A stretch of DNA of 64,000 nucleotides, taken from positions 795,154 through 859,153 of the forward strand of contig OZ253668.1 of NCBI GenBank assembly GCA_965263275.1, written 5' to 3'. Source of the DNA: Thermodesulfobacteriota bacterium (lineage in GTDB: Bacteria; Desulfobacterota_D; UBA1144; Nemesobacterales; Nemesobacteraceae). Under the pieces are notes generated by a model. The model had not been told where the DNA came from and made no database searches. It saw nothing but the letters and a program-made list of their open reading frames with translations. This document shows positions 10,028 through 55,300 of this stretch, piece by piece; within the stretch, counting starts at the first letter, position 1; every line of letters starts with the position of its first letter. A program made the translations under genes and the position numbers.

Positions 10028-10270
10028 TTTTAGATACGGAGTCCTACCGGATGTTTTATTTGCACGTACGGTCTTTTGAGTGAAAAGTCCCTCGCGCAGC
10101 CTTGCCCGGCTTTACTTTGCCTGTCATTTAAAATAACTGTAATCTTCTCAAACACACCGGAAATTTCAATGAGAATCCGAAAGGCAATTCCACGGGAGGC
10201 AAAAACGGGGGGCTGGATCCAATGCCGCTTCCGTTCCCCAGAACCCGCGTTTTGAACCTAGGCAAAAACG

Positions 10271-10962
10271 ATGGAAACATTTGAAGCGCTGATTTTAAGA
10301 AAATCCAGTTACGGGGAAGCCGATCTTCTGGTAACGCTTTTCTCAAGGGAATCCGGAAAATTCAGGGCGCTTGCCAAAAACGCGAAAAAAAGCCGGAAGC
10401 GCTTCGGAGGACGACTCGATTTCTTTAACCGTCTCTCAATTGACGTAACTCTGAACAAAGGAAGATTCAATCTCATCGGGGACGTGACCTTAAAGCAAAC
10501 CTACAGGGATATAGCGGAATCGGTGGACTCTTTCGCTACGGCAACCCGCGTTCTTGAACTTGTGGATTTCCTCATTCCCGAACAGGAACCCGCAAGCGAG
10601 TTGTTCGACCTCGCCGCAGACACTCTGGAACTTCTCTCAAAAAAATGGGAACCGTATTCCGTTTTCCTCGTTTTCCTCCTCCGCGCGCTAACTCTTTGCG
10701 GCTACAGACCCGATTTGCGTTTTGACAAGGGAAAAGACATTGCGGGTTTTGACGTGGAAAACGGGAGGGTCTGTAACCTCGAGAAACTCAGAGTAAAAGA
10801 AACGTTTATCACTTTCACATGGACATAATGAGACGTCCAGAAATCATGGATAAAAACCCTGAGAAAGTAAAGAACAACATACGGGTTCTCACGAGATACA
10901 CCGAATACCTTACCAGCAAGCGTCTTGGGAAAAGCGATTTTGCGGGTGAGACCGCAACATGA
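10271..10962 (+). CDS. recO: DNA repair protein RecO, interrupted by a frameshift at about 10805 in this sequence
   Basis: ORF 10271..10828 carries the RecO N-terminus (ALILRKSSYGEADLLVTLFSRESGKFRALAKNAKKS). The C-terminal continuation (...MRRPEIMDKNPEK...KRLGKSDFAGE) is in the +2 frame up to 10962. The shift lies at a T-run (cgtttatc). Confidence 0.6.
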
Positions 10963-10991
10963 AGTGGAGAGCCGCTACGCCGGGCCCCCTG

Positions 10992-12185
10992 TCAAGTCCT
11001 GTAATCAGAATTGATAGAGACATACCTGTGGCTCAGGTCGCTTGTAAGAAGCGAGTAAGTCTCTTTTCCCTCTCCAAGGCTCAGGGTTACCGTAAAGGAC
11101 GGTTTTTTGAATACGGAGGCGAACCTTGATTCCGGCTGGGACCTAACACCTTTTGAGAACACTTCAGTCTCATCGAAATAGAGCTTTATTTTTTCGGGAT
11201 CGATCCCGACGCCGGCCCTGCCGGCGGCCGCCACTATCCTTCCCCAGTTAGCGTCCTCTCCGTAAAACGCGGTCTTAACGAGCTGGGAAGTGGCTATCGT
11301 CCTTGCGATTTTCTCGGCGTCTCCCTCGGTCCTTGCCTCCGTAACACTGATTCTTACGACCTTCGTAGCCCCTTCACCGTCGCTTACTATCATTTCGGCG
11401 ATCTCCCCGCATAGAGACGAAAGCGCCTCTACAAACTTCCCGTAATCCTCGCTTTTCTCGGTGATTTTCCCGTTCCCGAGAACCCCGTTTGCGAGGATAA
11501 AAACGGAGTCGTTAGTGGAAGTGTCCCCGTCAACCGTCATGGCGTTAAAGGAACCTTCCGCGGCCGCAGAAAGAGCCTTCGAAAGAGCCTTCCGCCCGAT
11601 GTTAAGATCCGTCATTATAAAACAGAGCATGGTCGCCATGTCGGGACATATCATCCCCGCCCCCTTGGCGATAGCCGAGACGGTGGCGGTCTTTTCTCCC
11701 AATACTAACTCTCTCACGGGGAACTGCCTCGATGCATATTTGGGAAAGGCGTCGGTCGTCATTATGGCTTCCGCGGCCTCCCGAGCGTTATCCTCACCGA
11801 GGCCCCTTACGAGCCTGGGGATGGACTTTTTGATTTTCCCGGCGGGAAGCTTTTGCCCTATAACACCGGTTGACGAAGGAATTACGAGCGACTCGTCTAT
11901 TCCGAGCCGGCTGGAGAGCGAGTTTGCCACGTCAAGCGAGTCTTGGTATCCCCTTTTGCCCGTGCAGGCGTTTGCGTTCGCGCTGTTTATGATTATCGCC
12001 TGGCAGAACCCGCTTGCTATTCTCTCCTCGGCAAGAAGCACGGGCGCCGCCTTTATCAGGTTTTTCGTGAATATGGCGGACGCGCGGGCCGGAGCGGTTG
12101 AGAATATGAGAGCCAAGTCCTTTTTCTCGTTTTTCTTAAGTCCGGCGGATACGCCGCTTAGCAGAAATCCCGGTGCGTTTTTCAT
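10992..12185 (-). CDS. argJ: bifunctional glutamate N-acetyltransferase/amino-acid acetyltransferase
   Basis: 397 aa. The ATMLCFIMTD autoproteolytic-site region and overall ArgJ architecture are present. Confidence 0.9.
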   Translation of the reverse strand: MKNAPGFLLSGVSAGLKKNEKKDLALIFSTAPARASAIFTKNLIKAAPVLLAEERIASGFCQAIIINSANANACTGKRGYQDSLDVANSLSSRLGIDESLVIPSSTGVIGQKLPAGKIKKSIPRLVRGLGEDNAREAAEAIMTTDAFPKYASRQFPVRELVLGEKTATVSAIAKGAGMICPDMATMLCFIMTDLNIGRKALSKALSAAAEGSFNAMTVDGDTSTNDSVFILANGVLGNGKITEKSEDYGKFVEALSSLCGEIAEMIVSDGEGATKVVRISVTEARTEGDAEKIARTIATSQLVKTAFYGEDANWGRIVAAAGRAGVGIDPEKIKLYFDETEVFSKGVRSQPESRFASVFKKPSFTVTLSLGEGKETYSLLTSDLSHRYVSINSDYRT

Positions 12186-12316
12186 AGGGAAATTATATAC
12201 AAACTATGCTGTCTACGGAATAAGAACCGGAAAACCCGAAGGAAACTGCAACTCCCGCGGAACAACCGCCGGGAAAGAGGCTCCCCGTACCGCTTCCTTT
12301 AACGCTCCCGCTAGGT

Positions 12317-13420
12317 TCACTTGTGATCAGAACCGGTAATCTCGCTCAGGTCGCTAATTCCGTTTTTATCCATGAACCCAAGGAGCCCCCTGTTTATCGA
12401 GTTCGCAACCGATAGCCCCTCTCCGCGAAGACCAGTGACTACTTGGAGGGCTTTCGCTCCCGCGCGCAACTTCTCAAGCGCAGAAGCCGTGTCGCACACC
12501 CCTCCGACTCCGATTATCTCGACCTCCCCGCCGGTAGTGCGGTAAATGTGGGAAATAATTGACGTGGAAAGCGATTTGTACTCAAAATCGTTTCCGCTTA
12601 TTCCCCCAGGAAGACCTTCCCACTTCGCGCCGTATTTTCCCTTAACCAGGCCGCTGTCTGTCGTATTGGTGGCGATTACGCCTGAAATCCCGGAATCGAT
12701 CACGACCTTTAGTACATTGTCTATCGCTTCGGTGGCAAGGTCAGGAGAGATTTTTACAAACAGGGGTTTGGCGCCGGAAGAATCCCCGAGAGACTCCCTT
12801 ACGGCCCGTATTATCTCCTCAAGCCGCCCTCCGTCCTGAAGCCTCCTTAATCCCGGGGTGTTAGGAGAGCTCACGTTTATGGCAAAGTAGGCCGCGTTGC
12901 CGCGGAACTTCCGGGCGACGGCCGCGTACGCCCGCGCGGCGTCTTCGTGGTCTACATCGGAGTTTATGCCGAGGTTCACTCCCACGGGCATGTCCAGGCG
13001 GCCGTACCACGCGAGGTTTCGGAATACAGCATCCATCCCCGGGCTGTTAAGTCCAAGAGAGTTGAGACACACCTCCGGGGTCACCATGAACTGTCTCGGC
13101 TTCGGATTTCCCCTCTGGGGTCTCTCAACGACCGAACCCACCTCAACTCCCCCAAAACCAATCGAGTACAGGGCCTTAACCGCCCTTGCGGTCTTATCCC
13201 ACCCGGCACCCACGATAAGGGGGTTCTCAAAGGGCACTCCGGCAATCGTAACGCCAAGTCTTTTGTCCCGGACCCTGGCTCCACCGCTTGCGGCAAATTC
13301 AAGAAGTCTCAATGTAAGACCCGAGAACTCGCAAAGATGCATAAGCTCCTTTACGTTATGGTGCCATGTTTCAGAATCAAGGCGGTCAAGAACCGGTCTT
13401 ACAAAAGTTTTATAGCTCAT
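12317..13420 (-). CDS. pyrD: dihydroorotate dehydrogenase (quinone), class 2
   Basis: 367 aa with an N-terminal membrane-association extension, plus GLNSPG and NVSSPNTPGLR motifs. Confidence 0.9.
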   Translation of the reverse strand: MSYKTFVRPVLDRLDSETWHHNVKELMHLCEFSGLTLRLLEFAASGGARVRDKRLGVTIAGVPFENPLIVGAGWDKTARAVKALYSIGFGGVEVGSVVERPQRGNPKPRQFMVTPEVCLNSLGLNSPGMDAVFRNLAWYGRLDMPVGVNLGINSDVDHEDAARAYAAVARKFRGNAAYFAINVSSPNTPGLRRLQDGGRLEEIIRAVRESLGDSSGAKPLFVKISPDLATEAIDNVLKVVIDSGISGVIATNTTDSGLVKGKYGAKWEGLPGGISGNDFEYKSLSTSIISHIYRTTGGEVEIIGVGGVCDTASALEKLRAGAKALQVVTGLRGEGLSVANSINRGLLGFMDKNGISDLSEITGSDHK

Positions 13421-13491
13421 TACCCTGAGAAGATTTTATCCGAATCAGGGAACTTCGGGAAAAGCCGGCTTTAAAAAGGAATACCGGAAGA

Positions 13492-14592
13492 TCAGACATT
13501 GAACCTGAAAAACATCACGTCCCCGTCGCAGACCTCGTACTCCTTTCCCTCAACCCTCATCTTCCCGGCTTCCCTAACCATCTGCTCCGAACCCTCGTTT
13601 ATGTAATCTTTGTAGGATATGGTCTCGGCTCTTATGAAGCCCCTTTCGAAATCGGTGTGGATAACCCCGGCCGCCTGAGGCGCCCTGGTCCCTTGGCGAA
13701 CAGTCCATGCTCTTACTTCCTTAGGCCCCGCGGTAAAATAGGTGAGAAGTCCGAGATTCGAGTACGCGGAGTTAACAAGCCTGTCAAGGCCGGAATCGCT
13801 AAGCCCGAGTTCCCCTAGAAAAGCCGCCCTTTCCTCTCCTTCAAGCTCGGATATTTCAGCCTCTATCCTGGCAGAGACAATGATAACATCATCCCCCGAG
13901 CGGCTTGCGTGTTCTTTTACCTTCCGGACTTCAGCGTTTTCTTCAGTTCCCGAGACTTCATCTTCGGAGACGTTGCAGACGTAAATAACGGGCTTTGAAC
14001 TTAGAAGAAAAAGCTCCCGCACAGTATCCGCGCATTGCTCTGACCCGGGAAAGTCGCGCGCGCGCTTCCCCGTCTCGATAAACTCCCTAAGCGACCTTAC
14101 CGTCTCAAATGCCCGGACCATTTCCCTGTCCCTGCTTTTGGCCTGCGTTGAGAGTCTTTCCTCTCTTTTCTCAACTGTTTCAAGGTCCTTTAGGATAAGT
14201 TCGTCTTCAATCGTGCGGATATCCCGGATGGAGTCAATCCCCTCTTCCACGTGGATAACGTTTTCATCCTCAAAACATCTGACCACGTGCAGTATCAAAT
14301 CCACGTCCCTTATATGGGACAAAAAGGCGTTTCCCCGGCCCTTTCCCTCAGAAGCTCCCTTCACGAGCCCCGCGATGTCAACGATCTCTATGCTTGTGGG
14401 GATGGTTTTCTCCGGTCCTACGATATCCGAGAGCGCATAAAGTCTGGGGTCCGGAACTCCGACGACTCCTATGTTCGGATCTATGGTGCAGAAAGGAAAA
14501 TTGGATGCGGCAACGCTCGCGTTTGTGAGCGCGTTGAAAAGAGTTGACTTCCCGACATTGGGAAGTCCTACTATTCCGCATCCTAGTCTCAT
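13492..14592 (-). CDS. ychF: redox-regulated ribosome-binding ATPase YchF
   Basis: The track ORF runs to 14667, but its first 25 codons overlap tRNA-His. The real start is MRLGCGIVGLPNVGKSTLFNALT (G1 P-loop) at 14592. A C-terminal TGS domain is present. Confidence 0.85.
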   Translation of the reverse strand: MRLGCGIVGLPNVGKSTLFNALTNASVAASNFPFCTIDPNIGVVGVPDPRLYALSDIVGPEKTIPTSIEIVDIAGLVKGASEGKGRGNAFLSHIRDVDLILHVVRCFEDENVIHVEEGIDSIRDIRTIEDELILKDLETVEKREERLSTQAKSRDREMVRAFETVRSLREFIETGKRARDFPGSEQCADTVRELFLLSSKPVIYVCNVSEDEVSGTEENAEVRKVKEHASRSGDDVIIVSARIEAEISELEGEERAAFLGELGLSDSGLDRLVNSAYSNLGLLTYFTAGPKEVRAWTVRQGTRAPQAAGVIHTDFERGFIRAETISYKDYINEGSEQMVREAGKMRVEGKEYEVCDGDVMFFRFNV

Positions 14593-14622
14593 ATGTTTTT
14601 TCTTCCCGCAGCCTGAAGAAAA

Positions 14623-14701
14623 TGGGGTGGATGACCGGATTTGAACCGGCGACCTCTTGGGCCACAACCAAGTGCTCTAACCGGGCTGAGCTACACCCAC
14701 C
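14623..14701 (-). tRNA. tRNA-His (GTG) with genomically encoded G-1 and CCA
   Basis: Minus-strand cloverleaf G-GTGGGTG...anticodon loop TTGTGGC...T-arm GGTTCAAATCC...CATCCACC-CCA. The extra 5' G pairs with discriminator C73, as is typical for bacterial tRNA-His. Confidence 0.85.
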
Positions 14702-14847
14702 TTCGAAATCTTCTTCGTCTACGAAGCAAAACCGAATCCGCTAATATACCGGCAACTTTGTTAACAAACAAATCATCGCACACAAGGCACTAGGCCGCGA
14801 CGAAAACCGCTGTTTTTTGGACCTACGGACAGGTCTTGGAGTACATA

Positions 14848-14897
14848 TTTGATTTAATCGAGAAACTTGTTTATACTAGGCAATTTTTGATTTAATC
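14848..14897 (+). promoter_or_regulatory. direct repeat TTTGATTTAATC x2 (38-nt spacing) flanking a TATACT -10-like element upstream of the malate synthase/ICL operon
   Basis: Exact 12-nt repeats at 14848-14859 and 14886-14897. A 10-bp perfect palindrome TTGTTAACAA lies upstream. Confidence 0.3.
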
Positions 14898-14926
14898 TCA
14901 ACAGGTATCCGAGGAGCAACGAACCA

Positions 14927-16810
14927 ATGGGCACTGAACTGCACATAAGAGACAACATCGAGCAATCCTATGGCGACGTGTACACGCCAGAGGCGCTCGC
15001 GGCCCTTGAATTCATGGCCCGCTTTAACGGGGAACAGAAGGCGATTATGGAGAAAAGGACGCAAAGAAGGAAAAGACGCTATGAGTCCGGTGAGAGAATA
15101 ACGTTTCTTGATCCCGATTCCCTGATCCCGCGTACCAACATCAAAGTCCAGGACGCGAGGGACGGGAAATTCGAGGGAGCAGAGATTCCCCATGATCTCA
15201 AAAGACAGTGGATACAGGGAACGGGCCCTGCTGCCAAACCGAACTCGCCTGTTGAAAAAAGCATAAGAAACGTTGCCTACGCTCTTCTCTCGGGCGCCGA
15301 CGGGTGGATGTTCGACGGAGAGGACGCCCTCGGACAGATCTCCACGATGTCCCTTGACAACCAGCGAAACCTCAAGCTCGCCATCGCAAGAGACGAGGTC
15401 TTCATGAAAACAGCCGAGGCGGTAGCCGGAGAGATGAACAGGTGGGGACAGAGCTTCTTCGGACATGACATAATAGACGACTGGGAAAAGCAGCTTGACT
15501 TCACTACCGTTATTTTCCGTGCCAGGGGACTTCATCTCGACGACCGGCACATACGCAACGCTGACGGCGTAGCTCTTTCCGCTTCCGTAGCCGACATGAC
15601 TCTGTTTGTGGTGAACAACTACAGGGAGCTTGCGAAAAGAAACTCTTCCATAGTTCTTTACCTGCCCAAGATTCAGACCGCGGAGGAAGCGGCGCTTTGG
15701 AACGAGATGCTGACGGCTCTTGAGAGCCATCTCGGACTTCCCGAAGGGTCCATAAAGGTATACGTGCTGATAGAGCAGCTTGAGGAAACGTTCCAGCTTA
15801 TGGAAATCAGGGCCGCTTTGGGAAAACACTTCGCTGGATTTAACACCGGCAGGTGGGATTACATAAACAGCGTTTCGGACGCCATGGCGTGGGACAAGGA
15901 TTTTCTGAATCCGAACATAGAGTCGATCACCATGACCTACGGTTACATGAGAAACTACGAAGACCGCGTGAGAAGAGCGGTGAATACGCCTGATATAAAC
16001 GGAAAGTTCGCGCTCTGGCAGGGAGGGATGGAACCGAACATCCCAGTGGGGTCAAAAGAGGGCGTTCAAAGCAGCATGGAAAAAGCGTACGCAGGAGCCG
16101 TGCGCGAACAGCAGGAAGGAGCCAGCGGTAAATGGGTAGCCCATTGGAAAATGGTGCACATAATAAGGCCCGTATGGGAAAAAACAGGCGAGGAAAACCA
16201 GCTCGGAAGAGAGTTCCCTCCCCTGACCTATACCCAGGAAGACGCAGACGGCCTTACCCTTCTTGAACCGGCTCCAAGAACGATAAGAGGAGCCCGCAAC
16301 CTGCTCAGCGTGGGGCTTCAGTACGGAAACGCTTTCGGACAGGGCTTCCAGGCCGCGGCGCTAAAACCCGCGGATTTCTTCGGCAACGACGACATTCTTT
16401 ACCTGATGGAAGACGCCGCGACCGGAGAGATAAGACTGAGCATACTCTGGGAATGGGTCCACAAAGGAGCAAAGCTCACCGAGGACGACCCGGAAACCGG
16501 ACTGAAAGCGGGGGATGTGTTCACCATCGAGGTTTTCGAGAGGCTTCTTGAGGAAGAATACGAAAAACTGCAGAAAGCAAGTGACAGAGACGTCCATGAC
16601 ATCTCGAAACCCACCACGCTTCCGATAGCGAAACAGATAGTGAGAACTTATGTGCTTGACGACGTTAAGGTACCGTGGTACATAGACCTTCTCAACATAA
16701 ACCTAAACAACCACGATCACGATATAGCCGCGCAAAGAATCGAACTCTACATGTCGGAGTTTGCGGGCAAAGATAAGAGAATCACCGAGAATCTGGATTT
16801 TGTAATTTAG
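14927..16810 (+). CDS. malate synthase
   Basis: 627 aa. KHFAGFNTGRWDYI closely matches the PROSITE malate-synthase signature. It sits directly upstream of isocitrate lyase. Confidence 0.85.
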   Translation: MGTELHIRDNIEQSYGDVYTPEALAALEFMARFNGEQKAIMEKRTQRRKRRYESGERITFLDPDSLIPRTNIKVQDARDGKFEGAEIPHDLKRQWIQGTGPAAKPNSPVEKSIRNVAYALLSGADGWMFDGEDALGQISTMSLDNQRNLKLAIARDEVFMKTAEAVAGEMNRWGQSFFGHDIIDDWEKQLDFTTVIFRARGLHLDDRHIRNADGVALSASVADMTLFVVNNYRELAKRNSSIVLYLPKIQTAEEAALWNEMLTALESHLGLPEGSIKVYVLIEQLEETFQLMEIRAALGKHFAGFNTGRWDYINSVSDAMAWDKDFLNPNIESITMTYGYMRNYEDRVRRAVNTPDINGKFALWQGGMEPNIPVGSKEGVQSSMEKAYAGAVREQQEGASGKWVAHWKMVHIIRPVWEKTGEENQLGREFPPLTYTQEDADGLTLLEPAPRTIRGARNLLSVGLQYGNAFGQGFQAAALKPADFFGNDDILYLMEDAATGEIRLSILWEWVHKGAKLTEDDPETGLKAGDVFTIEVFERLLEEEYEKLQKASDRDVHDISKPTTLPIAKQIVRTYVLDDVKVPWYIDLLNINLNNHDHDIAAQRIELYMSEFAGKDKRITENLDFVI

Positions 16811-16849
16811 ATTCTCGAAGAAAACAATATTTTTTAGGAGAGCAGACTC

Positions 16850-19123
16850 ATGAGCCAGTTTGAAGCTGAGATAAGGAAAACGAAAAGGTATTTTTCAAGC
16901 GTGCGCTTCAAAGGAATAACCCGTCTCTACTCCCCCCGACAAGTAGTGGAGCAGAGAGGAACCATAAGAAGGGATTATTCGATCGCGAAAAACGCGGCGG
17001 AGAATTTTTACAAAAGACTCCGGGAGCTATTTTCCCAGAAAAAGCAGATAACGTCCTTCGGTCCGTACTCACCCGGCCAGGCCGTTATGATGAAAAGAAA
17101 GGGGATTGAGGCAATCTATCTTGGCGGATGGGCCACGTCGGCAAAAGGCTCAATGAACGAGGACCAGGGAGCGGATCTCGCAAGCTATCCACTAAGCCAG
17201 GTACCTGACGAAGCGGCTCCAATAGTAAGAGCCCTTCTGTCCGCGGACAAGAACCAGAGATACAACCGCTCCAGAATGACGGAGAAGGAAAGGGCTCGGA
17301 CACCGCAGATTGATTACAGCCCCTTCATAGTTGCGGACGCGGACACCGGGCACGGGGGCGACGCCCATGTGAGGAACCTTATCCGCAGGTTCGTTGAAGT
17401 AGGCGTAACAGGTTGTCACATCGAAGACCAGAAACCCGGAACCAAGAAATGCGGTCATCAGGGCGGAAAGGTTCTAGTACCTTCTGACGAACAGATAAAA
17501 AGACTAAACGCGGCAAGGTTTCAGCTCGATATCATGGAAGTGCCGGGGATAATAGTTTCAAGAACCGACGCCGAAGCCGCGGCACTTCTTGACGGAAACG
17601 GGGATGAGCGTGACCAGCCGTTTACTCTGGGAGCCACCAAGCTTAATATCCCAAGTTACAAAAACACTTACCTGACAATCCTTAAAAGGATCAATGAAAA
17701 GGGCGTAAAAGAGATAAACGGTCACAAGCTCTATAAAATAAGCGACGAGACCTACGCGGACACTGACAAGTGGCTCGAAAAGGTCGGAATAGCGTCGTTT
17801 ATAGACGAGAGCGTGGAGAAAATGAAAGGGGATACGCATGAGTTTGAAACCGTTTTCGATTCCATAGTTACCAATTTCGTCAAGACATGGGAAGAGGAAT
17901 CCGGGTTGAGCACTTTCGGCGAAACGATAGAGAAACTGATGCAGTTTAATATTGAGCAGGGCATTGAGTTTGACATGAGTGTCGAGCAGTGGAAAGAGTT
18001 TGCCAAAACCGCGTCGACAAAAGACGCAATGGCAAAAGCTGATTCCATGGGAATTGACTATATATGGGACACCGAGATCTCAAGGACTCCCGAGGGATAT
18101 CATCAGGTAAAAGGGGGAATCGAGTACGCAATCGCCAAGTCGCTTGCCGTAGCGCCTTTTGCCGACCTGCTCTGGATGGAAACCAAAACGGCGGACATAG
18201 AGGATGCCAGGCAGTTCGCAGACGCCATCCACGAAGTCTTTCCGAACAAGATGCTGGCCTATAACCTGTCCCCCTCCTTTAACTGGGATACAACGGGAAT
18301 GACCGACGAGGAAATGAAGAAATTCCCCGAAGAGATAGGAAAGCTCGGCTTCGTGTTTGATTTCATAACCTACGGTGGTCATCAGATTGACGGTATGGCC
18401 GCAGAAGAGTTCGCAACGGCGCTTCAGGAAGACGGCATGCTGGCCCTGGCTCGGGTACAGAGAAGACTAAGGCTCATAGATTCGCCTTACAAAACTCCGC
18501 AGAGCCACGTCGGAGGACCCCGCATGGACGGAGCGCTTGTGGCAAGCTCCGGCAGAACCGCGACGACAAAAGCCATGGGCAAGGGTTCCACCCAGTTCCA
18601 GCACCTGGTCCAGACGGAAATTTCCATCAAGCTTCTCGAAGAATGGCTTGAGTCTTGGACAAGGCACTACAAGATCAAGGACAGTTTCACCGTTGAACTC
18701 AAGCCCCACACCGTGGGAACGTTCGTGCTTGAACTGAACATTCTAAACGGCAAGGGCGAGAAGGTAGCGGACATCATATTCGAAATTCTGCAGGACAGAA
18801 AGGGAGAAAAAATACTTACGATAAGGGATGAGAACAATTTTGATACTGCTCTTCGCCAGAAACGTCTCGCCACCCTGCTCCATCTGTTCCTCATTCATCG
18901 CTACAAAACGGACTTCGTACATTACGTAAGTCCCACGGATGATAACCTGATGCAGACCAAGGGAATGATGAGACTCGGGATTTACGAATCGGTCAACACC
19001 GAAGTCGGTCATATAATAGTGACCAAGGTAAACGTCGATTACGTAAAAGAGTTACTGAGTCCCGACCGCAGGGAACTGAAAAAGCTTATAGCGAAGAAAA
19101 CCAAATCCCGTAAAAAGAAATAA
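16850..19123 (+). CDS. aceA: isocitrate lyase, long (ICL2/AceAb-like, about 757 aa) form
   Basis: [16 protein letters not shown] signature, with a large inserted and C-terminal region as in the ~766 aa mycobacterial ICL2. RBS AGGAG is 7 nt upstream. Confidence 0.9.
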
Positions 19124-19160
19124 AGAGATCCTAAATTGAATAGAATCTCTTTTCGTACAT

Positions 19161-19195
19161 GCTCAAGGCGAAAAACAACGCTTTTTGCCTTGAGC
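19161..19195 (+). terminator. stem-loop downstream of aceA (putative terminator)
   Basis: Perfect 9-bp inverted repeat GCTCAAGGC...GCCTTGAGC (17-nt loop) about 40 nt after the aceA stop. A second shorter hairpin AAGAGAT...ATCTCTT sits at 19127-19155. Neither is followed by a U-tract. Confidence 0.35.
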
Positions 19196-19477
19196 TGTAA
19201 CCGTCTTTGTCTGGGTCTTTTGCGATATCTCCCTTGCTGATGAAATCTCGCTGCTCAATGACCACGCCCCTATAGGAGTTATGAGCGACCATACTCACAA
19301 AGCAGGTGAATGGATGGTCTCCTACCGCTACGGTTTCATGAAAATGGACGGAAACGGCTACAGCTTCACAGTCGGCTGGCAGATGTCAATCTGAAAACGA
19401 GATTCGATTAAAGAACCCTGCGATTGACATAAAAACCCAGAGAACTCTCCGTCAGCCATCATTCCGGAGCGGAGAGC

Positions 19478-19515
19478 CTTACGGTTTCAAGGAAAAAAAC
19501 CGTAAAATATATTTT
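19478..19515 (+). terminator. hairpin plus T-rich tract (rho-independent-like terminator) after the orphan small ORF
   Basis: TTACGGTTT-caaggaaaa-AAACCGTAA perfect 9-bp stem, followed by AATATATTTT. Confidence 0.35.
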
Positions 19516-19580
19516 CGTAGTAATCAATACCAAAAACTGTATCCTAATTTATTCAGAACAGAGGCGACTCAGCACGTCTC

Positions 19581-20983
19581 TTGAGAAAACACGTAACCGA
19601 GAGTGACGCAATGCCGGTAAACGTCAAAAAAACCTTAAAGAGAATAGACAGGGCTCTTGAGAAGGGAAACTGGGATGCCGTGAGAAGCATAACCCAGTCC
19701 ATGCACCCCCTCCGAAATAGCATCCCTGATACAGGCTTCTCCACAGGGGAAAAAGCATCTTATACTGGAGGCCCTGGACACGGAAGTAGCCTCCGAGGTC
19801 TATTTTCAGCTAAACCCCGAGGAACGCGTAAGCATACTGAAGCTTATGCGGGAAACATCCATAACCGCGATGACCGAAGAGATGGAATCGGACGATGCCG
19901 CCGATTTCCTGGAGAACTGCCGGAAGCTCTGGCGGAGACGGTTCTCAAGACCATGGACCCGGAAGAACGCAAGGACGTAACGCCGCTTCTCAAGTACCCG
20001 GAAGATTCCGCGGGCGGATCATGCAGACCGAGGTCCTTAGAAGTTCCCACGACGCCACTTCGAGAGAAACCGTCGAACTTATAAGAAAAATCGAGAAGGA
20101 AGATGAAGAAGACGTAGAGGACCTGCACATGGTCTACGTGGTGAACGAAACGGGAAGGCTCGTCGGAAGGGTTTTTCCGCTTAAGCTCTCAACGGCGGCA
20201 GCTGATTCTCCCCTTTGGACTATCATGGATCCGGTCGAGGTAACGCTCACTCCGAACATGGATCAGGAGGAAGTGGTCAAGATCTTCAGGAAATACGATG
20301 AGATGTCGCTTCCCGTGCTGGATGATTCCGGCGTGCTGCTCGGCAGGATAACCGCCGACGACATACTTGACGTTATCTCAGAAGAGGCAGGGGAAGACAT
20401 ATACAAACTCGGTGGAATAAGCGGCGAGGGACTGCACCCCATACACACATCCATATACGACAACGTGAGGCTGAGAGCGCCCTGGATAATGCTTGCTCTT
20501 GTTGGAGAGCTCTTCGTGGCGTTCATGATAATGCAGAAGTTTCAGACCACGCTTGAGAATTTCATCATTCTCGCGGCACTGCTTCCCCTGGTTATGGCCA
20601 CGGGCGGAAACGTCGGAGTTCAGACAAACACCATCACCGTCAGGATCATAGCCACCGGTGATTTCGTGATGAACCAGATAAAAGGCCTTCTTCTGGCGGA
20701 ACTCAAAGTGGGGCTGACTCTCGGGATCATAAGCGGTATTCTGGGTTCTCTGCTTGGAATTTTGCTAAATACAGCGGACATAGATTTCGTAAGGCTGTTT
20801 CTCGTAATATTCGCAGGAATTGTCGGAGCCACGCTCACAACTTCCTTTCTGGGCGTTGCAGGCCCTGTTCTACTTAACAAACTCAAGATGGATCCCGCAG
20901 TATCATCAGGACCATTTCTCGTTACGTTTAACGATATATTCGGTACCGCTTTCTACCTGTTTCTAGGTGCCGCACTGCTGTGA
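19581..20983 (+). CDS. mgtE: magnesium transporter MgtE, disrupted by three single-base indels in this sequence
   Basis: MgtE sequence is distributed over three frames: N domain in frame of 19581, PSEIASLIQ...DDAADFLE in another frame, LPEALAETVLKTMDPEERKDVTPLLKYPEDSAGG back in frame 0, then IMQTEV...CBS domains and the TM domain in the frame of 19895. Indels lie at C5 (about 19706), a G-run (about 19912) and about 20017. Confidence 0.8.
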
Positions 20984-21089
20984 AGATAGTAGAGTCAGAA
21001 TTTTTCGCAAATTTGGTTTGGAATTTCTTTTAATCCAGGTTTCTTAAAGAATTGCGTCCAATAAAAGGACTCTACCAGAGTATTGAATG

Positions 21090-21164
<75 letters not shown>

Positions 21165-21201
21165 CAAAAAACCAAACACGCATCAAATCACGAAGAAAAT
21201 G

Positions 21202-21274
21202 TCGGGGTGAGAGGGCTCGAACCTCCGACCTCAGCATCCCAAATGCTGCGCGCTCCCAGCTGCGCCACACCCCG
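21202..21274 (-). tRNA. tRNA-Pro (TGG)
   Basis: Minus strand CGGGGTGTGGCGCAGCTGGG...anticodon loop TTTGGGA...GGTTCGAGCCC...CACCCCG-A. Confidence 0.85.
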
Positions 21275-21340
21275 ATTTAAAAACTTGTAATTATAACAAC
21301 AGCGGCTGAAGAAAACAAAGCCACGGTTATAACGAAGAAC

Positions 21341-22235
21341 TCAGGAATCCGAAAGCCTGTATTTCTTCCAGTACCTTATAAGTCCGCCGGCGTTCATATG
21401 GTAAGGAGCCATGAGATCGTACTTGCGATAGATCTCTTCATTTACGCCTTCCCGCTCGAATATTTCCCTGAAGTAGGCGCCGAACTCTTCGGTTATGTCT
21501 TCATCGCTCTTCCCCGCCGATACTCTCTCGCCGACCCACTCCGACCACTCTTCGAGTCTTTCCGCGGCGGCATCAAGTCTGGCGTTAACATCCGTGTATC
21601 CGCCGAAATGGGTAAGATAAATCACGTCGGGGGATATCTCTTTCATCCTGTCAATAGAAGCGTGCCACTTCTCAAGGTGTATTTCGGGAGGAGGAGTCGC
21701 GGGAATCATAGGCCCACCCGCCATTACGCATCCAGCAGTATCCCCCGTAAAAAGGGAGTTCTCAACGAGATAAGAGTAATGATGTCCCGCATGTCCGCTG
21801 GTCTCAACAGCCTTTATTTCAACGCCTCCTATGCTGACGCTCTGGGCATCCTCAAGGGCAACCACGCGACTTTGATCCATTCCCCTGACCTCGCCCCACA
21901 GTTCTTCCATCTTATCCCCGTATATCCTTGCGGCAGACTTCATGAGTTTCTCGGGGGCAACAAGATGCGGAGCTCCCACCGGGTGAACATATATAGTGGG
22001 AACCCGCAGCGGCGAAACGCCAGGCGGCCCCTGAGTGGTCAAGATGGATGTGGGTTACGAACACGTGTTTTACGTCCGAGGGTGCATAGCCCAGATCCGA
22101 AAGACCGTTTTTAAGATTTTCAAACGAAGTGTCGGGACCCGTCTCTATCAGTATCGGCCCCTCACCGGTCTCGATAAGATAAGATGCTATCGTCTCTGTC
22201 GTGAAGAAATTAACGTCAATGATCTTTAAATCCAT
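21341..22235 (-). CDS. MBL-fold metallo-hydrolase, frameshifted at about 22003 in this sequence
   Basis: ORF 21912..22235 carries HIHLDHSGAAW (HxHxDH motif). The continuation (TIYVHPVGAPHL..., TTG-initiated ORF 21341..22042) is in another frame. The shift is at a G-run. Confidence 0.6.
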
Positions 22236-22273
22236 TTAGCTTTGTCCTCCTGAAAATTGCGTTTGCTCGTTGT

Positions 22274-22754
22274 TTAGAATCCAAAACGTAGACCTGCGTG
22301 GAATGTCGTATTGTCAACTGACCACGAATCTACTACATCGCTACTTCTGGCAATTCCTAGTTTTATCCTTGCGCTGTCACTCAGGTTCAAGAAGCCTGCA
22401 ACGGCTAACGCAGTGTTGCCTTCACACGGGTCTCCGCCCTTTACCGGGTAAGACGCCCCGTTTGTATAGTGACTAATGCCCATGCCCAACTTAACTCCTG
22501 CTACTTTGAAGCCCGCGCCTCCCGTAAACACACTGATATTATCAATCCCCGCGTATTTTTCATTTTAACGGGGTGTGTGACGCGGTTACGTCAAACGTAA
22601 CTTTTTGGTGAGCAAGTTCCGGTACCGCATGGATTGCGAGATTGTTGTTCTCAACGGTACTGCAATCTTCCGCGGTTGCCAGTGTCGGCAGAATAGCTAT
22701 TAAGCCCGCTATTAAGAACAGTTTAATTTTATTCATTTCACTACCTCCTTTCAA
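22274..22754 (-). CDS. small outer-membrane beta-barrel protein (OmpW/OmpX-like), frameshifted at about 22564
   Basis: Signal peptide MNKIKLFLIAGLIAILPTLATA in ORF 22560..22754. The rest is in ORF 22274..22531 and ends in the OMP terminal motif GLRFGF. The frames rejoin across an A-run. Confidence 0.5.
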
Positions 22755-22868
22755 TTAGAAACATAGCTTTTTCCGCTCGACGGTTAACCAATGCATGATA
22801 ATTTTTCCTTTTCAGATAGTTTTGGCAACTCTTCCGAGAAAACAATTCGCTCTGGACAACAGCATCTC

Positions 22869-23961
22869 TCACGCACCGGCCTTCACACGACCGGAGTCAA
22901 CGAAAAACGAGTGGAACTCCCCCCGACGGGGTATCTCGTCTTTATCGGTCGAGGTAACGAACACCTGCCCGGTAAATTCTGAGAGCGTCTGGAAAAGAAA
23001 GCCCCTGCGTTCCATGTCAAGTTCGCTCGTTATGTCATCAAGAAGAAGTATGGGATTGGTCCCCGTATGCTCCTTAAAGAGCCTTATCTCCGAGGCCTTG
23101 AGCGCCAGAACCAGGTTTTTTGACTGTCCCTGCGAGGCAAAGCGCGAAGCGTCCTGTCCGTTCAGCAGAAAACCGACCCGGTCCCTGTGGGGACCGACGG
23201 TCGTGTGACCTCTTTTTCTGTCCGAAGGGAAATTCTTTGAAAGTGCCTCCCTTATACCCTCACCGAGGTCCGCCTTGCGTTCAAAGGAAAACCCGTAGCT
23301 TATGTGCGCCGACGTGTCCGATTCCCCATGCTCCCCGTAAACTTCGGCAAGTTTGCGGTTAAAGCTCTTTATCATCTCGATACGTCTGCTTACGATGTCG
23401 GCTCCGCCCCTGGCTATCTGCTCGTCCCATAGTTCCATTGGAAAGCGCAGACACTTTCTCTCTTGAAGCAAGCATATGGTTTCTCTGGCTCACGGCCCTC
23501 TGGTAGTCGCGAAGCTGCTTGATGTGAACCGGGTAAACGGCGCTTATCACGGAATCAAGATAATTTCTTCTGGCCTGCAACCCTCCCTTTACTATCTCTA
23601 TGTCCGACGGAAGAAACAAGACCACTTTGAATCGACCGAAGTGCTGGCTTATGCTCCGCACGGTCTTTGAGTTAAGCCGTGTGTGGCGGCCTTCTTTCTT
23701 CACGGTTATGTGCACTTCGTTCAAGCCGTTTCCCGAAAGAATCTCCCCCTTTACGAGCGAGGCTTCGCAGCCGAAGCGCACAAGGTCAGAGTTTTTCGCG
23801 CCCGAGAAAGGCCGCAGCCCGCAGACAAGATAAATGGCTTCGAGAAGGTTTGTTTTCCCCTGGGCGTTTCGACCGTGAATGACGTTGAATCCCGGATAGA
23901 ACGGAAGGGAAAGGCTCTCGTAATTTCTGTAGTTCCTAAGGCTTAGATGTTTGAGCTGCAC
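22869..23961 (-). CDS. recF: DNA replication and repair protein RecF, frameshifted at about 23455
   Basis: The N-terminal half (MQLKHLSLRNYRNYESL...GRNAQGKTNLLEAIY Walker A) and the C-terminal half (ELWDEQIARGG...LLLDDITSELD signature/Walker B) are separate ORFs joined across an A-run. Confidence 0.8.
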
Positions 23962-24061
23962 TTGATTTGCCGACTGTTTTTTTTCTGAGAAAAACCGCTT
24001 CTCCGCTTTCCGCGGATACTTTCTTGACCATAAAATTTTAAGCGTTAATATCTTTTTTGAA

Positions 24062-26179
24062 ATGATATCGCTTAAAATATCGGAAATCCACTCAAAAGAC
24101 TGCGGGAAAGGCTATGCCAAGATCAGCAGCATGGACATGAAGGAGCTCGGCCTCACGTCCCGGGACCTCATACAGATAGACGGAAGAAGAAAGACCGTTG
24201 TGAGAGCCATGCCGCTTGATGCGGATGAACGGGAACCGGAGTCCGTCATAGAAATAGACATGGTAACCAGAGAAAACGCGGGAGTGGGGCTTGACGACAT
24301 AGTAATAGTAACAAAAGCCGATCTTGAAAAGGCAAGCCGGATAACCCTGTGTCCGAGAAACAAGGCTTTTCTCTACGACCCCGCTAAAAACAAGCGTCTT
24401 TGCAACAGACTCGAAGGACTTGCCGTAACGGCCGGAGACAGGGTGTCAGTCAAAATGTCCTCCGCTAAGACCGAAGACTTCGATGTGCTTACCACAATGC
24501 CTGAGCCCTCAGTGGTCATAAGCCAGAAAACCCGCATGGACGTGATACAGAGACCCAGAACCAGAGTAGACGCAGAGAGGATCTCGTACGCGGACATAGG
24601 AGGATTTTCAAGCCAGCTAAGAAGAATAAAGGAGATTTTTGAATTTCCGATACGCTTTCCCTCGCTTTTTGAAAAACTCGGAGTCCAGCCACCCAGGGGA
24701 ATCCTTCTGACAGGCCCCCCGGGAAGCGGAAAGACCCTGCTTGCAAAAGCCATAGCGTTTGAGACGGATTCAAATTTTCAAGTAATAAACGGCCCCGAGG
24801 TAATTCACAGGTTCTACGGAGAAAGCGAGGCCAAGCTGCGCCAGATATTTGAGAACGCGACGAAGAATCAGCCTTCAATAATATTCCTTGACGAACTCGA
24901 CGCGATAGCTCCTCGCCGGGACAAGGTGACGGGAGACGTGGAAAAAAGAGTAGTGGCACAGCTCCTCTCCCTCATGGACGGACTCAAGGACAGGGGAAAC
25001 GTTACGGTTATCGGAGCGACGAACCTTCCCGACATGATTGATCCCGCGCTACGGCGCCCGGGCAGGTTTGACAGGGAGATTTACCTCCCGGTTCCCGATA
25101 CCAAGGCGCGCCTCGAGATATTTCAGGTTCATTCAAGGAGTATGCCGCTTTCAAATGACGTGGATCTTCAGAGACTCTCTGAGCTTTCAAGCGGCTATGT
25201 GGGAGCCGACATAGAGAATCTCTGCAGAGAGGCGGCCATAAATTCTCTTACCAATATTCTGCCGGACATAGAGCATGACTCCGTCTCCGACCTCGGACAC
25301 AGCTTTCCCGTTGAAGTCAGTATGGAAGACTTCCTTGAGGCGCTTCGCAACATCCATCCCTCGGCAATAAGGGAGATAGTGGTTGAGATACCGAAAACCT
25401 CCTGGGAGGATGTGGGAGGTCTTGAGAACGTAAAAAACGATCTGATTGAATCCGTTATATGGCCGATGAAGCACAGAAATTTCTACGAAGCTCTCGACGT
25501 GACGTCACCGAAGGGAATACTGCTCTACGGTCCGCCTGGAACGGGAAAAACCCTTCTTGCAAAAGCGCTTGCGAACAGAACGGAAGTCAACTTTATTTCC
25601 ATAAAGGGAGCGGAGCTTCTCTCCAAGTATGTCGGCGAATCGGAGCGCGCTGTAAGGGAAGTCTTCAGAAAGGCAAAGCAGGTTTCTCCCTGCATAGTGT
25701 TTTTTGATGAACTCGACGCTCTTTGTCCCAGACGATCCGAATCAAACTCAACCCGCGTGAGCGAAAGAGTCGTAAGCCAGATGCTTGCTGAAATCGACGG
25801 GGTTGAGGAACTCCCGGATGTTCTGGTGCTGGCCGCGACAAACAGGATTGACATGGTTGAACCGGCACTTCTGCGACCCGGGAGATTTGACTTGGTAGTC
25901 GAAGTTCCGACTCCGTCAAAACAGGGAATTCTTGAGATCCTGAAGATCCACACTCGGAAAAAACCTCTCGGTACCGACGTGAAAATCACCGCGCTTGCAA
26001 AACAGCTTGAGGGCAGAACCGGAGCGGACGTAAGACTTGTATGCAACCGGGCTTCCCTGCACGCGATAAAAGAACACCTGGGGAAAAGCAGGAAAGTCCT
26101 TAAACTCTGCAAAAGACATTTCGACCTGGCGCTTTCGGAACTTCAAAAAAGAAGCCTTTGCATAACACCAAGGCACTAG
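24062..26179 (+). CDS. Cdc48/VCP/p97-like double-ring AAA+ ATPase (N domain + D1 + D2)
   Basis: 705 aa. N-terminal double-psi-barrel-like region, then two AAA modules ([18 protein letters not shown]...IIFLDELDA and [18 protein letters not shown]...IVFFDELDA) with SRH regions. Confidence 0.8.
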
Positions 26180-26183
26180 TCTC

Positions 26184-27049
26184 TTGGAAAATTCTTCTTT
26201 CTTTCTAAACAGCATTCTTCCCGGGATATGGTTTTTCATGCTGGGGGCGGCGCTTGGAAGCTTCGCGAACGTCTGCGTGAGGAGAATTCCGGCGGGGGTC
26301 TCCGTCATCTCTCCCCGCTCCCGCTGCAATAGCTGCGAAACCCCCATCAGGGCTTTTCACAACATTCCCGTTTTAAGCTGGGTTTTCCTCGGGGGCAGCT
26401 GTTCCTACTGCAAAGAGCGGATATCTGTCGAATATCCGATTGTGGAACTTCTATGCGGAGTACTTGCGCTTTTTCTCTACAGGGAGCTTGGAGTCTCGCT
26501 TGAGCTGTTTTTCTACCTCGCGCTTTGCGTATCGCTTGTTGTTATAACCCTGATAGACATAAGACATCTTATTATTCCCGACATGATAACGCTGCCGGGA
26601 ATAGCTGGCGGGATTGCGCTTAACGCGATCAGAACCGACTGGGGGACGGCGACAGATGTGCTTTTTTCTTCCGGGTTCGCGAACTTTCTGCCTGCAACAG
26701 CGAATATCGCGATTTTAAATTCCATAGGGGGAGCGCTGCTTGGAGGAGGAACTTTTTACTGATCGCTACTCTGTACAAAACAGTTAGAAAAAGAGAAGGA
26801 ATGGGAATGGGTGACGTCAAGCTTGTTTCAATGCTGGGCGCTTTCTTTGGAATGTGGGGAGTGCTGATCATAATATTTCTAAGTTCCATTCTGGGAACCC
26901 TGATAGGACTGTCGGTTATAATACTGCGCAGAAAGGACCCGGGACACGCTATTGCCTACGGTCCTTTTCTTTCCTTCTCGGCTGTGTTGTATCTGCTCGG
27001 AGACAAACTTTTTCTCCTCCTCGGAATAAACATCGGGCCCCTTGGGTAA
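26184..27049 (+). CDS. pilD: type IV prepilin leader peptidase (A24 family, PilD), frameshifted at about 26757
   Basis: N-terminal GSFANVCVRRIP and CNSC...CSYC zinc-binding motif. The downstream part GMGDVKLVSMLGAFFG (catalytic Asp region) is in another frame and rejoins across a T5 run. Alternative start at Met 26238. Confidence 0.75.
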
Positions 27050-33610: not shown

Positions 33611-33723
33611 AGTAATTATCCGTTTAATTATGACATAGGGAAAATTTTTGTGAACATTAAAGAAAGAGAATTTGGTGATTACCTCCATACTTGAAACAGA
33701 ACATAATCTGTCGCTAAAAACTT

Positions 33724-33754
33724 ACAACAAAATTGTTGTCAACAATTTTGTTGT
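33724..33754. repeat. perfect 31-nt palindrome (15-bp arms, 1-nt spacer), AT-rich
   Basis: ACAACAAAATTGTTG-T-CAACAATTTTGTTGT. It lies downstream of hemY and about 115 nt upstream (5') of tRNA-Thr. Confidence 0.5.
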
Positions 33755-33907
33755 ATAGCAGGGAAAAAATGGCCAGACATGTCGCCGAGCATAGTCAACC
33801 AAGTGAGAAACCCCTTGTAATTACATAGCGAAACACATTTGCGGAACCAGCATATGATCCTAGAAAATTAACGTTCTTCACCGCTTCCGCTTATATCCCG
33901 TTATAAA

Positions 33908-36274: not shown

Positions 36275-38236
36275 CTAAATACCTGTTCCCGCGGAGTACT
36301 GGTGAACTTCATCAATCAGCCTGAGAACATTGTCAACCGGTGTCTGCGGCAGTACTCCGTGACCCAGGTTGAATATGTGGCCGGGCTTCCCTCCTACCCT
36401 GTCCAGTATCTTCCTTGCCTCCTCAACGACGTGAGAGGGGGTTGAGAGCATAGAAACGGGATCAAGATTCCCCTGAACCGCAAGAGAGCTGCCGGCTCTG
36501 CGCCAGCCGTCAAGAATATCGACCCTCCAGTCAAGACCGATAACTCCAGCTCCGGTCCTCCCCATGAGTTCGAGAAGAGAGCCGGTTGCGGTCCCGAACA
36601 ATATTACCGGAACACCCGACGGGAGCGTGGAGATGAGTTTCTTTACGTGCGGAAAGATGAACTTTTCATAATCCGCAGGAGAGAGACAACCTACCCAGCT
36701 GTCGAAAATCTGCACTGCATCGGCCCCTGCTTCCACCTGAGCGCAAAGGTAGTCCGAAATGCTCGCGGTCAGAATTTCCATAAGCCTCTCCCACAAAGAA
36801 GGGTCCCCGTACATAAGCTTTTTCGTGTTGACGTAGTTTCTTGAGCCCCTTCCCTCAATCGCGTACGACGCTACGGTAAACGGAGCGCCGGCAAAACCCA
36901 GAAGCGAAACTTCGGGATCAAGCGCCTCTCTGGTAGTACGCACAGCCTGGTAGACAAAGTCCATGCTTTCCGGATGAAATTCTCTCAGGGCCTCTATGCG
37001 TTTTCGTGTTCGAAGGGGGTTGGCTATCACGGGACCGTCAACGCTTGAATACTCAAGCGAAAGCCCCAGGGGTTCCAGGATAAGCAGTATGTCGGAGAAA
37101 ATGATAGCCGCGTCCACGCCGAGTCGGTCAACCGTCATAAGCGTAATTTCCGAAGCTATGTCCGGGGTCTTGCAAAGCTCCATGAACGGAACGCGGGAGC
37201 GGACCTCTCTGTATTCCCGGAGAAACCTGCCCGCCTGGCGCATAAGCCAGATGGGAGTATGATCGGCTTTCTCGAGCCGGCACGCCTTCATAAACGCCCC
37301 CGCGGACGTAATTTCGCTTCTTCGGGCCCGCGTGCCGTCCCCAGACCAGACCATCTGCGTACGGCTCCAGTTTCGGGTATCGACACCGTTTTGAAAGGCG
37401 GTTCTTTTTTTCGCCAGAAGCGCCGCGGACCTTCTGGCCGTCTCTCTCACCAGATTTCCCATTTTCGGGCTGTCGGGCTCATAGTCAACGGATATTCCGT
37501 TTCCTCTAAGCGTTTCGGTAGTGGATGGTCCGATTGAACATATAAGAGCTTTTTTCATCCCCTCCATAAATTCAGTGGCACACTCGTGCGTACCTGCCAC
37601 CTCAAAAAGATTGGATACCTGCCGGGAACTTGTGAACAGCAGACAATCCTCAGCGCCCTCGGATATGGACCTTACCGCGTCCTGCAGGGGACCCAGATCC
37701 TCCGGCAGCGCCCATCTGTAAATTGGAATTCTTCTTACGTCCGCCCCTCTTTTTTCAAGGGAAGCGAGAAATTCTTCATTGGAAACGCCGTATTCCTGAA
37801 CATACACGACCAGGTCTTCAAGCGACATGTCCCTCTGGTCAAAAGTGGAGAGTATATCCCTCCACGTGTTCGGTTCAGAAACGGTGATATCAGGCCTCAT
37901 GCCGAATCTGCGAAGGGCCGCGACGGGTTTCGGACCTCTTGTGAGAATCGTTGTTGAGCGCAGAGCCTCAACATACTCTTTTTCCCCGGACTCCTCGATT
38001 ACCATGTCGGAGAGAATTCGGGTTCCCACCCCAGTCATCAGAATAAGCATATCAACGTTGCCGGAGAAAAGGTCATCAGCAAACCTGACAACGTAAGGAC
38101 TTTTCAGATCAGGGACTTCCCTCATCGAGGGCGCGACCCTGGGGACACCGCCGTGATAAGAGATAAGTTTTTTCATCTCCTCACAGCGACGACTTTCAAA
38201 AGACGTCACCTTAAGTCCGTTAAAACCCTGTTTCAT
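36275..38236 (-). CDS. hemE: apparent bifunctional uroporphyrinogen-III synthase (HemD, aa 1 to about 275) / uroporphyrinogen decarboxylase (HemE, aa about 316-653)
   Basis: N-terminal HEM4/HemD-like domain, then PIWLMRQAGRFLREY (URO-D signature 1) and the full HemE domain. About 35-residue non-conserved linker contains an A7/T7 homopolymer at 37405-37411. Confidence 0.8.
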   Translation of the reverse strand: MKQGFNGLKVTSFESRRCEEMKKLISYHGGVPRVAPSMREVPDLKSPYVVRFADDLFSGNVDMLILMTGVGTRILSDMVIEESGEKEYVEALRSTTILTRGPKPVAALRRFGMRPDITVSEPNTWRDILSTFDQRDMSLEDLVVYVQEYGVSNEEFLASLEKRGADVRRIPIYRWALPEDLGPLQDAVRSISEGAEDCLLFTSSRQVSNLFEVAGTHECATEFMEGMKKALICSIGPSTTETLRGNGISVDYEPDSPKMGNLVRETARRSAALLAKKRTAFQNGVDTRNWSRTQMVWSGDGTRARRSEITSAGAFMKACRLEKADHTPIWLMRQAGRFLREYREVRSRVPFMELCKTPDIASEITLMTVDRLGVDAAIIFSDILLILEPLGLSLEYSSVDGPVIANPLRTRKRIEALREFHPESMDFVYQAVRTTREALDPEVSLLGFAGAPFTVASYAIEGRGSRNYVNTKKLMYGDPSLWERLMEILTASISDYLCAQVEAGADAVQIFDSWVGCLSPADYEKFIFPHVKKLISTLPSGVPVILFGTATGSLLELMGRTGAGVIGLDWRVDILDGWRRAGSSLAVQGNLDPVSMLSTPSHVVEEARKILDRVGGKPGHIFNLGHGVLPQTPVDNVLRLIDEVHQYSAGTGI

Positions 38237-48799: not shown

Positions 48800-49568
48800 T
48801 GCTCTTTGCTTCTAATTCCTTAGGAACAGTGATTTGATACTTTGGCACATAAACACCATTAGTCAGAAGACTTCGTTTGCCTTTGCCCAAATCGATTTTT
48901 TCTAAATCCAGAAAATTAAACCAGTCATGCTCCGCTTTCTCGCTCATATACAAAAAAAGCCGCTTCACTTTCACCGAACGGCACTGCTCAAGCAATGTCT
49001 GCACTTGGGCAGGTCTTAAATTGTTAAGTCCCTCCATCAACTCAAAGGCCTCAAGCAAAGACTGCTTTTCAGGCGCAAGATAAAGGCATTCCATTAGTGC
49101 TCGCGCAGCCCCGGACACATTGACGGAAAAAGTTTTCAGTTCAACGCTGGTCAGTCCCAGTTGTGGGGGAAGAAAGGAAGATGCGCGGTAGTAAACATCT
49201 AACTCCCAATCATACTTCTTAAACCAAAGGGGTAATCTTTCGCTAGCATGACCAAATAATATTGCCCGTTTCGGGGACAATTCAAGATAATGGGATTTAC
49301 CGAGCAATGATAAAGCAGTTCGACCACCAGGGTGAACACTTAAACCTTGCTGTTTTTGCAGGGCATAGACCGCACCCAAATAATCAACTTCGTCTCCCGC
49401 ACGGACCATAGCACCCGCACCTATTGATTCAAACCAATAACTGCGTCGATAGCGTTTCTGAAGATCCAGGCTGTAACCCCGCTCTGCCAGCCATGGTGAC
49501 AAGAGTACAACTCCTCTAGGTACAGTCCTTAAGAGTCGGTTTATTTTAGAATTATTTTGGGTACTCAT
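48783..49568 (-). CDS. abiEi: AbiEi antitoxin-like transcriptional regulator
   Basis: 261 aa, winged-helix-like N-terminal region. It lies immediately upstream of the AbiEii gene, which it overlaps by 17 nt, the usual AbiEi/AbiEii pairing. Confidence 0.55.
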   Translation of the reverse strand: MSTQNNSKINRLLRTVPRGVVLLSPWLAERGYSLDLQKRYRRSYWFESIGAGAMVRAGDEVDYLGAVYALQKQQGLSVHPGGRTALSLLGKSHYLELSPKRAILFGHASERLPLWFKKYDWELDVYYRASSFLPPQLGLTSVELKTFSVNVSGAARALMECLYLAPEKQSLLEAFELMEGLNNLRPAQVQTLLEQCRSVKVKRLFLYMSEKAEHDWFNFLDLEKIDLGKGKRSLLTNGVYVPKYQITVPKELEAKSNETGL

Positions 49569-51255: not shown

Positions 51256-51319
51256 CGTAATTCTTGAGGATGAGAGGGGATACTACGCGCGGCGATGAAA
51301 CCCCAGAAAAAACGGCAGC

Positions 51320-51838: not shown

Positions 51839-51840
51839 CT

Positions 51841-55294: not shown

Positions 55295-55300
55295 AGCCAG

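Follow-up and report, generated by a model that had tools for sequence, protein, structure and literature searches.

Long-read genome and metagenome assemblies carry a recognized class of error in which single-base run-length mistakes split conserved genes, are private to one assembly and are undone by single-base edits (PMC13087279); such insertion or deletion (indel) frameshifts are what protein-length checks of the IDEEL type are meant to expose. Frameshift errors and zero-coverage errors are both known to occur in long-read metagenome assemblies (PMC13087279). The stretch of DNA analyzed here, referred to as the window, comprises 64,000 nucleotides (nt) of contig OZ253668.1 from a bacterium entered as Thermodesulfobacteriota, and it holds six genes (recO, mgtE, an MBL-fold hydrolase gene, a gene for a 153-aa protein, recF, and pilD) that are broken by single-base frameshifts of this kind. 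It differs from the usual long-read case in that the damage is gathered in one patch of ~16 kb with the rest clean, and in that the affected runs are 1–6 nt long. Nine indels, which are private to one assembly, lie in one patch, all change the length of a mononucleotide run, and leave proteins matching those of sister strains once they are reverted, are most probably (about 90%) consensus errors of that assembly and not mutations in the organism.

The low-support regions of minimizer-space, homopolymer-compressed HiFi assemblers offer a second comparison. PacBio HiFi reads are nearly error-free once homopolymer-compressed (PMC13087279), and metaMDBG copies the bases of its contigs from individual reads on conversion to base space and then, in a racon-like step, polishes the errors, “mostly homopolymers,” by means of uniquely assigned reads (PMC11392814). 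HiFi reads and metaMDBG assembly were used for the Sanger sponge cobiont metagenome-assembled genomes (MAGs), which include Dadabacteria (PMC12648040). The window is like a low-support region of this type in that run lengths are wrong and substitutions almost absent, and in that the patch sits amid strain-specific insertions and has sibling contigs that could capture reads. The likeness to metaMDBG would supply the window with a mechanism by analogy.

The homopolymer pseudogenes of eroding endosymbionts are the third system that resembles the locus, with frameshifts at mononucleotide runs, recF and recO among the affected genes, and a host-associated bacterium as the points in common. Real endosymbiont cases, however, recur in related strains, involve A/T tracts that are long, and go together with substitutions and further decay, none of which is true of the window.

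Single-base run-length changes in six genes

An isocitrate-lyase-based scan of species-representative genomes puts the window, a piece of a metagenome-assembled chromosome, with the MAGs of Candidatus Dadabacteria, which are titled “Thermodesulfobacteriota” by NCBI. Its closest syntenic relatives are three of these MAGs (L066, L022, and L003) with 91–97% nucleotide identity; the wider group of Dadabacteria relatives stands at ~80–88%. A near-identical set (loci L078–L094) was recovered by exact-protein look-up from four other ENA assemblies. This set comprises eight or nine independent contigs, one of them circular and 1.69 Mb long, whose coverage labels range between 14x and 537x; they are 99.0–99.97% identical to the window and jointly span its positions 1–47947 and 48480–64000. 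Private events were sought over the whole window against this set, 63.5 kb being actually compared, and the lesions were located by alignment to the same contigs; each is given below as the true run length followed by the run length in the window.

Exactly nine window-private single-base indels were found, eight of them coding frameshifts and one in a spacer. An earlier reading of the letters and their open reading frames (ORFs), here called the sequence-only reading, had proposed eight frameshifts in six genes, each a 1-bp change in run length, and this is borne out by the Pfam and NCBIfam identities together with the contig alignment; the eight coding indels were all on its list, and the non-coding one was missed. 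Pfam matches both parts of every suspect gene to neighboring ORFs whose frames differ, and alignment to the three closest relatives gives window-specific 1-bp gaps at or near the positions proposed earlier, five of which were right to within a few bases, while those in recO and recF were 16–20 nt off.

The recO gene (10271–10962, +; RecO_N and RecO_C in Pfam, TIGR00613 in NCBIfam) has lost one A at 10784–10786 (A4 to A3), where AAAA is present in 6/6 matching loci, and is assembled as a fragment of 185 aa in place of the intact 230 aa. The frameshift is confirmed as an observation, and its earlier placement in a T-run at about 10805 missed the site by ~20 nt and named the wrong base. In mgtE (19611–20983, +; intact form of 457 aa), which is identified by MgtE_N, CBS, and MgtE in Pfam and by TIGR00400 at 296 bits with a cut-off of 233, there are three events: 19706 C4 to C5 (+1), 19911 G3 to G2 (−1), and 20018 A2 to A1 (−1). 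The C5 at 19706 and the G-run at about 19912 had been called correctly; for the third, proposed as a G-run at about 20017, the place holds and the base does not. Upstream of the mgtE start as called in the independent contigs, the non-coding spacer that follows the isocitrate lyase gene carries the remaining indel, a 1-bp deletion at 19416–19418 (C4 to C3). Rfam applied to the whole window returned four tRNAs only, with no Mg riboswitch or other RNA in this 490-bp spacer.

The MBL-fold hydrolase gene (21341–22235, −; intact form of 297 aa), with Lactamase_B on both fragments in Pfam, has an extra G at 21998–22000 (G2 to G3), a site that had been put at about 22003. The neighboring gene of 153 aa (22274–22736, −) has an extra T at 22563–22566 (T3 to T4), in agreement with the run noted earlier at about 22564. 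This gene is called in four independent contigs and encodes a secreted or outer-membrane-like protein of unassigned family, whose N-terminus resembles a signal peptide and whose last residue is Phe; gene and frameshift are confirmed as observations, and its earlier label as an outer-membrane protein is unproven, there being zero family matches in Pfam and NCBIfam. In recF (22869–23961, −; intact form of 363 aa; RecF in Pfam, TIGR00611 at 329 bits in NCBIfam), an extra T lies at 23438–23439 (T1 to T2), which confirms the frameshift and moves it 16 nt from the position of about 23455 first assigned to it. The prepilin peptidase gene pilD (peptidase A24; 26238–27049, +; intact form of 270 aa), with A24_N_bact and Peptidase_A24 on both fragments in Pfam, has lost one T at 26753–26757 (T6 to T5), as anticipated from a T5 at about 26757.

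All nine indels are changes in mononucleotide run length, the true lengths being 1–6 nt and mostly 1–4 nt. The chance that five deletions would all fall in runs of at least 2 and four insertions would all extend the neighboring base is ~1e-3, and the mean true run length at the indels is 3.2 vs 1.9 for random bases (P = 0.003). The association of the indels with runs exceeds chance, though the runs are short and not classic long homopolymers. Reversion of the nine indels restores six full-length ORFs. When their products are compared with the intact proteins of contig ctg58061, identity is 100% for mgtE, the MBL hydrolase, the 153-aa gene, recF, and pilD, and 99.6% for recO; no further decay was seen in the six repaired genes. 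The other genes are intact, as had been stated before.

The sequence-only reading had suggested that the same indels be looked for in independent strains, and the search gave 0/9, both in the near-identical contigs of the four other assemblies and in the Dadabacteria relatives, including the three closest. At each site, 5–10 other matching sequences all share one identical in-frame run length, and recO, mgtE, the MBL hydrolase, the 153-aa gene, recF, and pilD are all intact, at the lengths given above, in the near-identical contigs. For recO, the MBL hydrolase, the 153-aa gene, recF, and pilD, the truncated product is recorded from a single contig of 1,920,574 bp, which is presumably the source, while the intact alleles of these five genes are found on 6–15 contigs. 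In species-level Dadabacteria relatives (11–25 per gene), each gene is full-length in a single frame with no indel, which shows that the clade conserves these genes and has no programmed frameshift in them. The opposite arrangement, in which the window would be correct and the other assemblies wrong, was considered and rejected, the alternative state being in-frame, common to all assemblies, and conserved across species.

Confinement of the private events to one stretch

The damage is local and does not run systematically through the contig. The error-rich stretch runs from 10436 to 26757 and carries all nine private 1-bp indels together with two (10436 and 22490) of the three private substitutions; the third substitution is at 28770, and the count sets aside a recombinant allele patch at 48483–48781. 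Nine indels and two substitutions fall between 10436 and 26753, and the rest of the window (~47 kb) has a single substitution and no indel; eleven events in 16.3 kb give a rate of ~6.7e-4 per base, or ~Q32. Nine indels within 15,969 bp of the 63.5 kb compared have a probability of ~1e-4, and the absence of indels outside the stretch is set against 26.8 expected at the inside rate (P ~2e-12). A contig-wide error rate was accordingly rejected, no private indel being located outside 10.8–26.8 kb of the window, and the earlier description of the errors as systematic does not hold, as they are confined to ~16 kb (10.4–26.8 kb). One of the nine indels is non-coding and ~11% of the stretch is non-coding sequence (an estimate from gene coordinates), which is the number expected for placement that is blind to genes.

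The private substitutions within the six genes amount to one non-synonymous and one synonymous change only. In real bacterial lineages, indels are typically much rarer than substitutions. A ratio of indels to substitutions of ~4:1, together with three hits in one gene of 1.4 kb, has the pattern of long-read consensus error and not that of bacterial lineage divergence. The hallmarks of pseudogenes, namely a lesion shared by strains, substitutions under relaxed selection, and further decay, are absent from the six genes. The attribution to sequencing or assembly error made by the sequence-only reading is supported on these grounds, with indels private to one assembly, a 9:2 ratio of indels to substitutions in the stretch, and no other decay.

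Origin of the frameshifts

In size, a patch of ~16 kb roughly matches a single long read, and the error density in it, at run-length errors of ~1 per 1.5 kb with clean flanks, would correspond to roughly the accuracy of a single HiFi read. Since the patch is read-long and lies amid strain-specific insertions, we infer that a single long read, or at most a handful, probably supplied its bases and that it may have escaped polishing. The setting would be a strain-rich long-read metagenome assembly with an unpolished or poorly supported patch. Several of the sibling-strain contigs co-occur within single assemblies; by capturing reads, such contigs could make uniquely assigned reads scarce, so that run-length errors would stay in the consensus.

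Several points weigh against consensus error as the explanation. The hits are uneven within the stretch, seven of them lying in 19.4–23.4 kb and none in the 8.6 kb that holds argJ, pyrD, ychF, and the malate synthase and isocitrate lyase genes (max-gap test, P = 0.034), and selection sparing important genes could also give such an uneven pattern. The genes that are hit (recF, recO, pilD, mgtE, and the hydrolase gene) are of kinds open to loss in a host-associated bacterium. Homopolymer error of the classic type is found mainly in long runs, and the runs here are of 1–6 nt. The proposed source, PacBio HiFi reads assembled with metaMDBG, is likewise suggested by the names of the sister contigs and by the literature only.

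In a different history, the frameshifts would be genuine pseudogenes of very recent origin, confined to a single symbiont strain that is losing its RecFOR repair, its Mg transporter, its pilin processing, and other functions by ongoing erosion. In favor of this history, a cell could plausibly do without the disrupted genes, the intervening housekeeping and metabolic genes have been spared, frameshifts arise naturally by slippage in mononucleotide runs, and strain diversity in the population is clear. Such erosion would nevertheless require that eight frameshifts, three of them in mgtE, were fixed against only two to three substitutions in 64 kb, and that every indel arose inside the same 16 kb, the other 47 kb staying free of them; moreover, there is no other decay, one indel is intergenic, and none of the alleles is present on any other contig. 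Real pseudogenes of this kind are therefore judged improbable. In one form of the same idea, the indels are real and stem from a localized mutation shower within a single symbiont lineage, e.g., when error-prone repair synthesis over ~16 kb after a DNA break left clustered run-length frameshifts; such an event would have knocked out recF, recO, mgtE, and pilD together, and it receives about half of the small credence given to genuine pseudogenes as a whole.

Two further explanations take the frameshifts as real and functional, and both start from the fact that every lesion is a length change at a mononucleotide run. Programmed ribosomal frameshifting could restore the frame, or transcriptional slippage could do so, as at the poly(A) tracts of some endosymbionts. 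Programmed frameshifts are, however, conserved among relatives, whereas all near-identical strains and related species here use a single frame, a result that excludes the programmed frameshift which had earlier been called less likely. Appreciable transcriptional slippage needs runs of about 9 or more, far above the 1–6 nt of these tracts, and mgtE would require three separate events. The genes could instead be phase-variable contingency loci that were turned off by a change in tract length. Contingency loci have long tracts, usually of 7 nt or more, that are polymorphic in length among strains, whereas the tracts here are of 1–6 nt and, at every site, the 5–10 other sequences agree on one in-frame length; the affected genes serve housekeeping repair and transport, and one of the nine sites lies outside coding sequence. 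Because the defining features of both explanations were looked for and are missing, neither the decoding nor the phase-variation account deserves more than the slightest credence.

With consensus error as the preferred explanation, recF, recO, mgtE, pilD, the MBL hydrolase gene, and the 153-aa gene are best regarded as intact, and the apparent pseudogenes are almost certainly not a biological feature, as judged from the comparison of assemblies. A public MAG at chromosome level, from an uncultured phylum associated with sponges, appears to hold a patch that gives rise to six false pseudogenes, two of them (recF and recO) in the RecFOR pathway of recombination repair. If accepted as they stand, they would lead to the wrong inference of repair loss and genome erosion in a symbiont. 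Spurious truncated proteins would also enter the databases in this way, five such fragments being already on record. High-quality long-read metagenome assemblies can hold unpolished, read-length patches in strain-rich regions, and these are detectable without the reads by comparison to sibling assemblies. The biological interest of the finding is low, and its practical value is one of caution on gene calls.

Strain-variable surroundings and neighboring genes

The window is bacterial, with a GC content of ~50%. Its isocitrate lyase gene gave no megablast hit in E. coli genomes, and an enteric origin was rejected on that basis. The gene order from 10.2 to 27.9 kb is recO, argJ, a pyrD-type DHODH gene, ychF, the genes for malate synthase and the 757-aa isocitrate lyase, and mgtE, followed by two tRNAs, the MBL-fold hydrolase, the 153-aa secreted protein, and recF, and then by a CDC48-like AAA ATPase, the prepilin peptidase, and an AmiA-like amidase.

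Sibling strains differ from the window at several places in and near this region. An insertion sequence (rve) is present between ubiA and recO in L089 (window 10056–10270), a Type ISP restriction gene lies beyond argJ in L085 (window 12186), and in L091 the isocitrate lyase gene and mgtE are separated by a DUF2442 gene and one of 69 aa (window 19329–19493). Copies of Transposase_mut are present in siblings near 33.7 kb (L080, L093, and L094; window 33651–33873). The pattern of strain substitutions is a mosaic, with blocks of 0 vs 10–60 differences per 2 kb. In contig ctg105524_54x (L078, 14257–22274), a defense-like island comprising Dcm methylase, Vsr, HATPase_c_3, Z1, DUF4420, and AIPR follows directly after mgtE. 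At the matching site (20983–21341), the window has a tRNA pair (21090–21164 and 21202–21274, −) and then the MBL hydrolase; the site after mgtE looks like a strain-variable integration hot spot.

Farther along, the window encodes an intact AbiEi_3/AbiEii type IV toxin–antitoxin pair (47882–49568, −), whereas in sibling strains AbiEii is cut to 122 aa and the downstream genes differ. Positions 47948–48479 have no counterpart in the sibling contigs, and positions 48483–48781 are a strongly divergent allele with 43 private substitutions.

Private lesions are present in other assemblies as well. In priA (59527–61950, −), the window and ctg58061 share a G9 run at ~60507–60515, and contig ctg104496_29x (L084) reads GGTGGGGGGG at this site, one base longer than the other GGTG6 alleles (G6 to G7); its priA is split into 500 + 321 aa by a frameshift that is private to that assembly. 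The 14x contig ctg58061 (L087; window 146) has a private 13-bp duplication, CTTCTACCCGCTT, which cuts the call of ALAD (hemB) to 279 from 344 aa. Other assemblies of the population therefore also carry private lesions, in other places, and these two cases were counted in favor of error.

GlnE is a 933-aa ORF in the window and is called at 932 aa elsewhere, a start-codon difference. A fused HemD–HemE protein of 653 aa (HEM4 + URO-D) is encoded at 36275–38236 (−). The glyoxylate-shunt pair at 14927–19123 (+), made up of malate synthase and the unusually long isocitrate lyase of 757 aa, is conserved across the Dadabacteria relatives.

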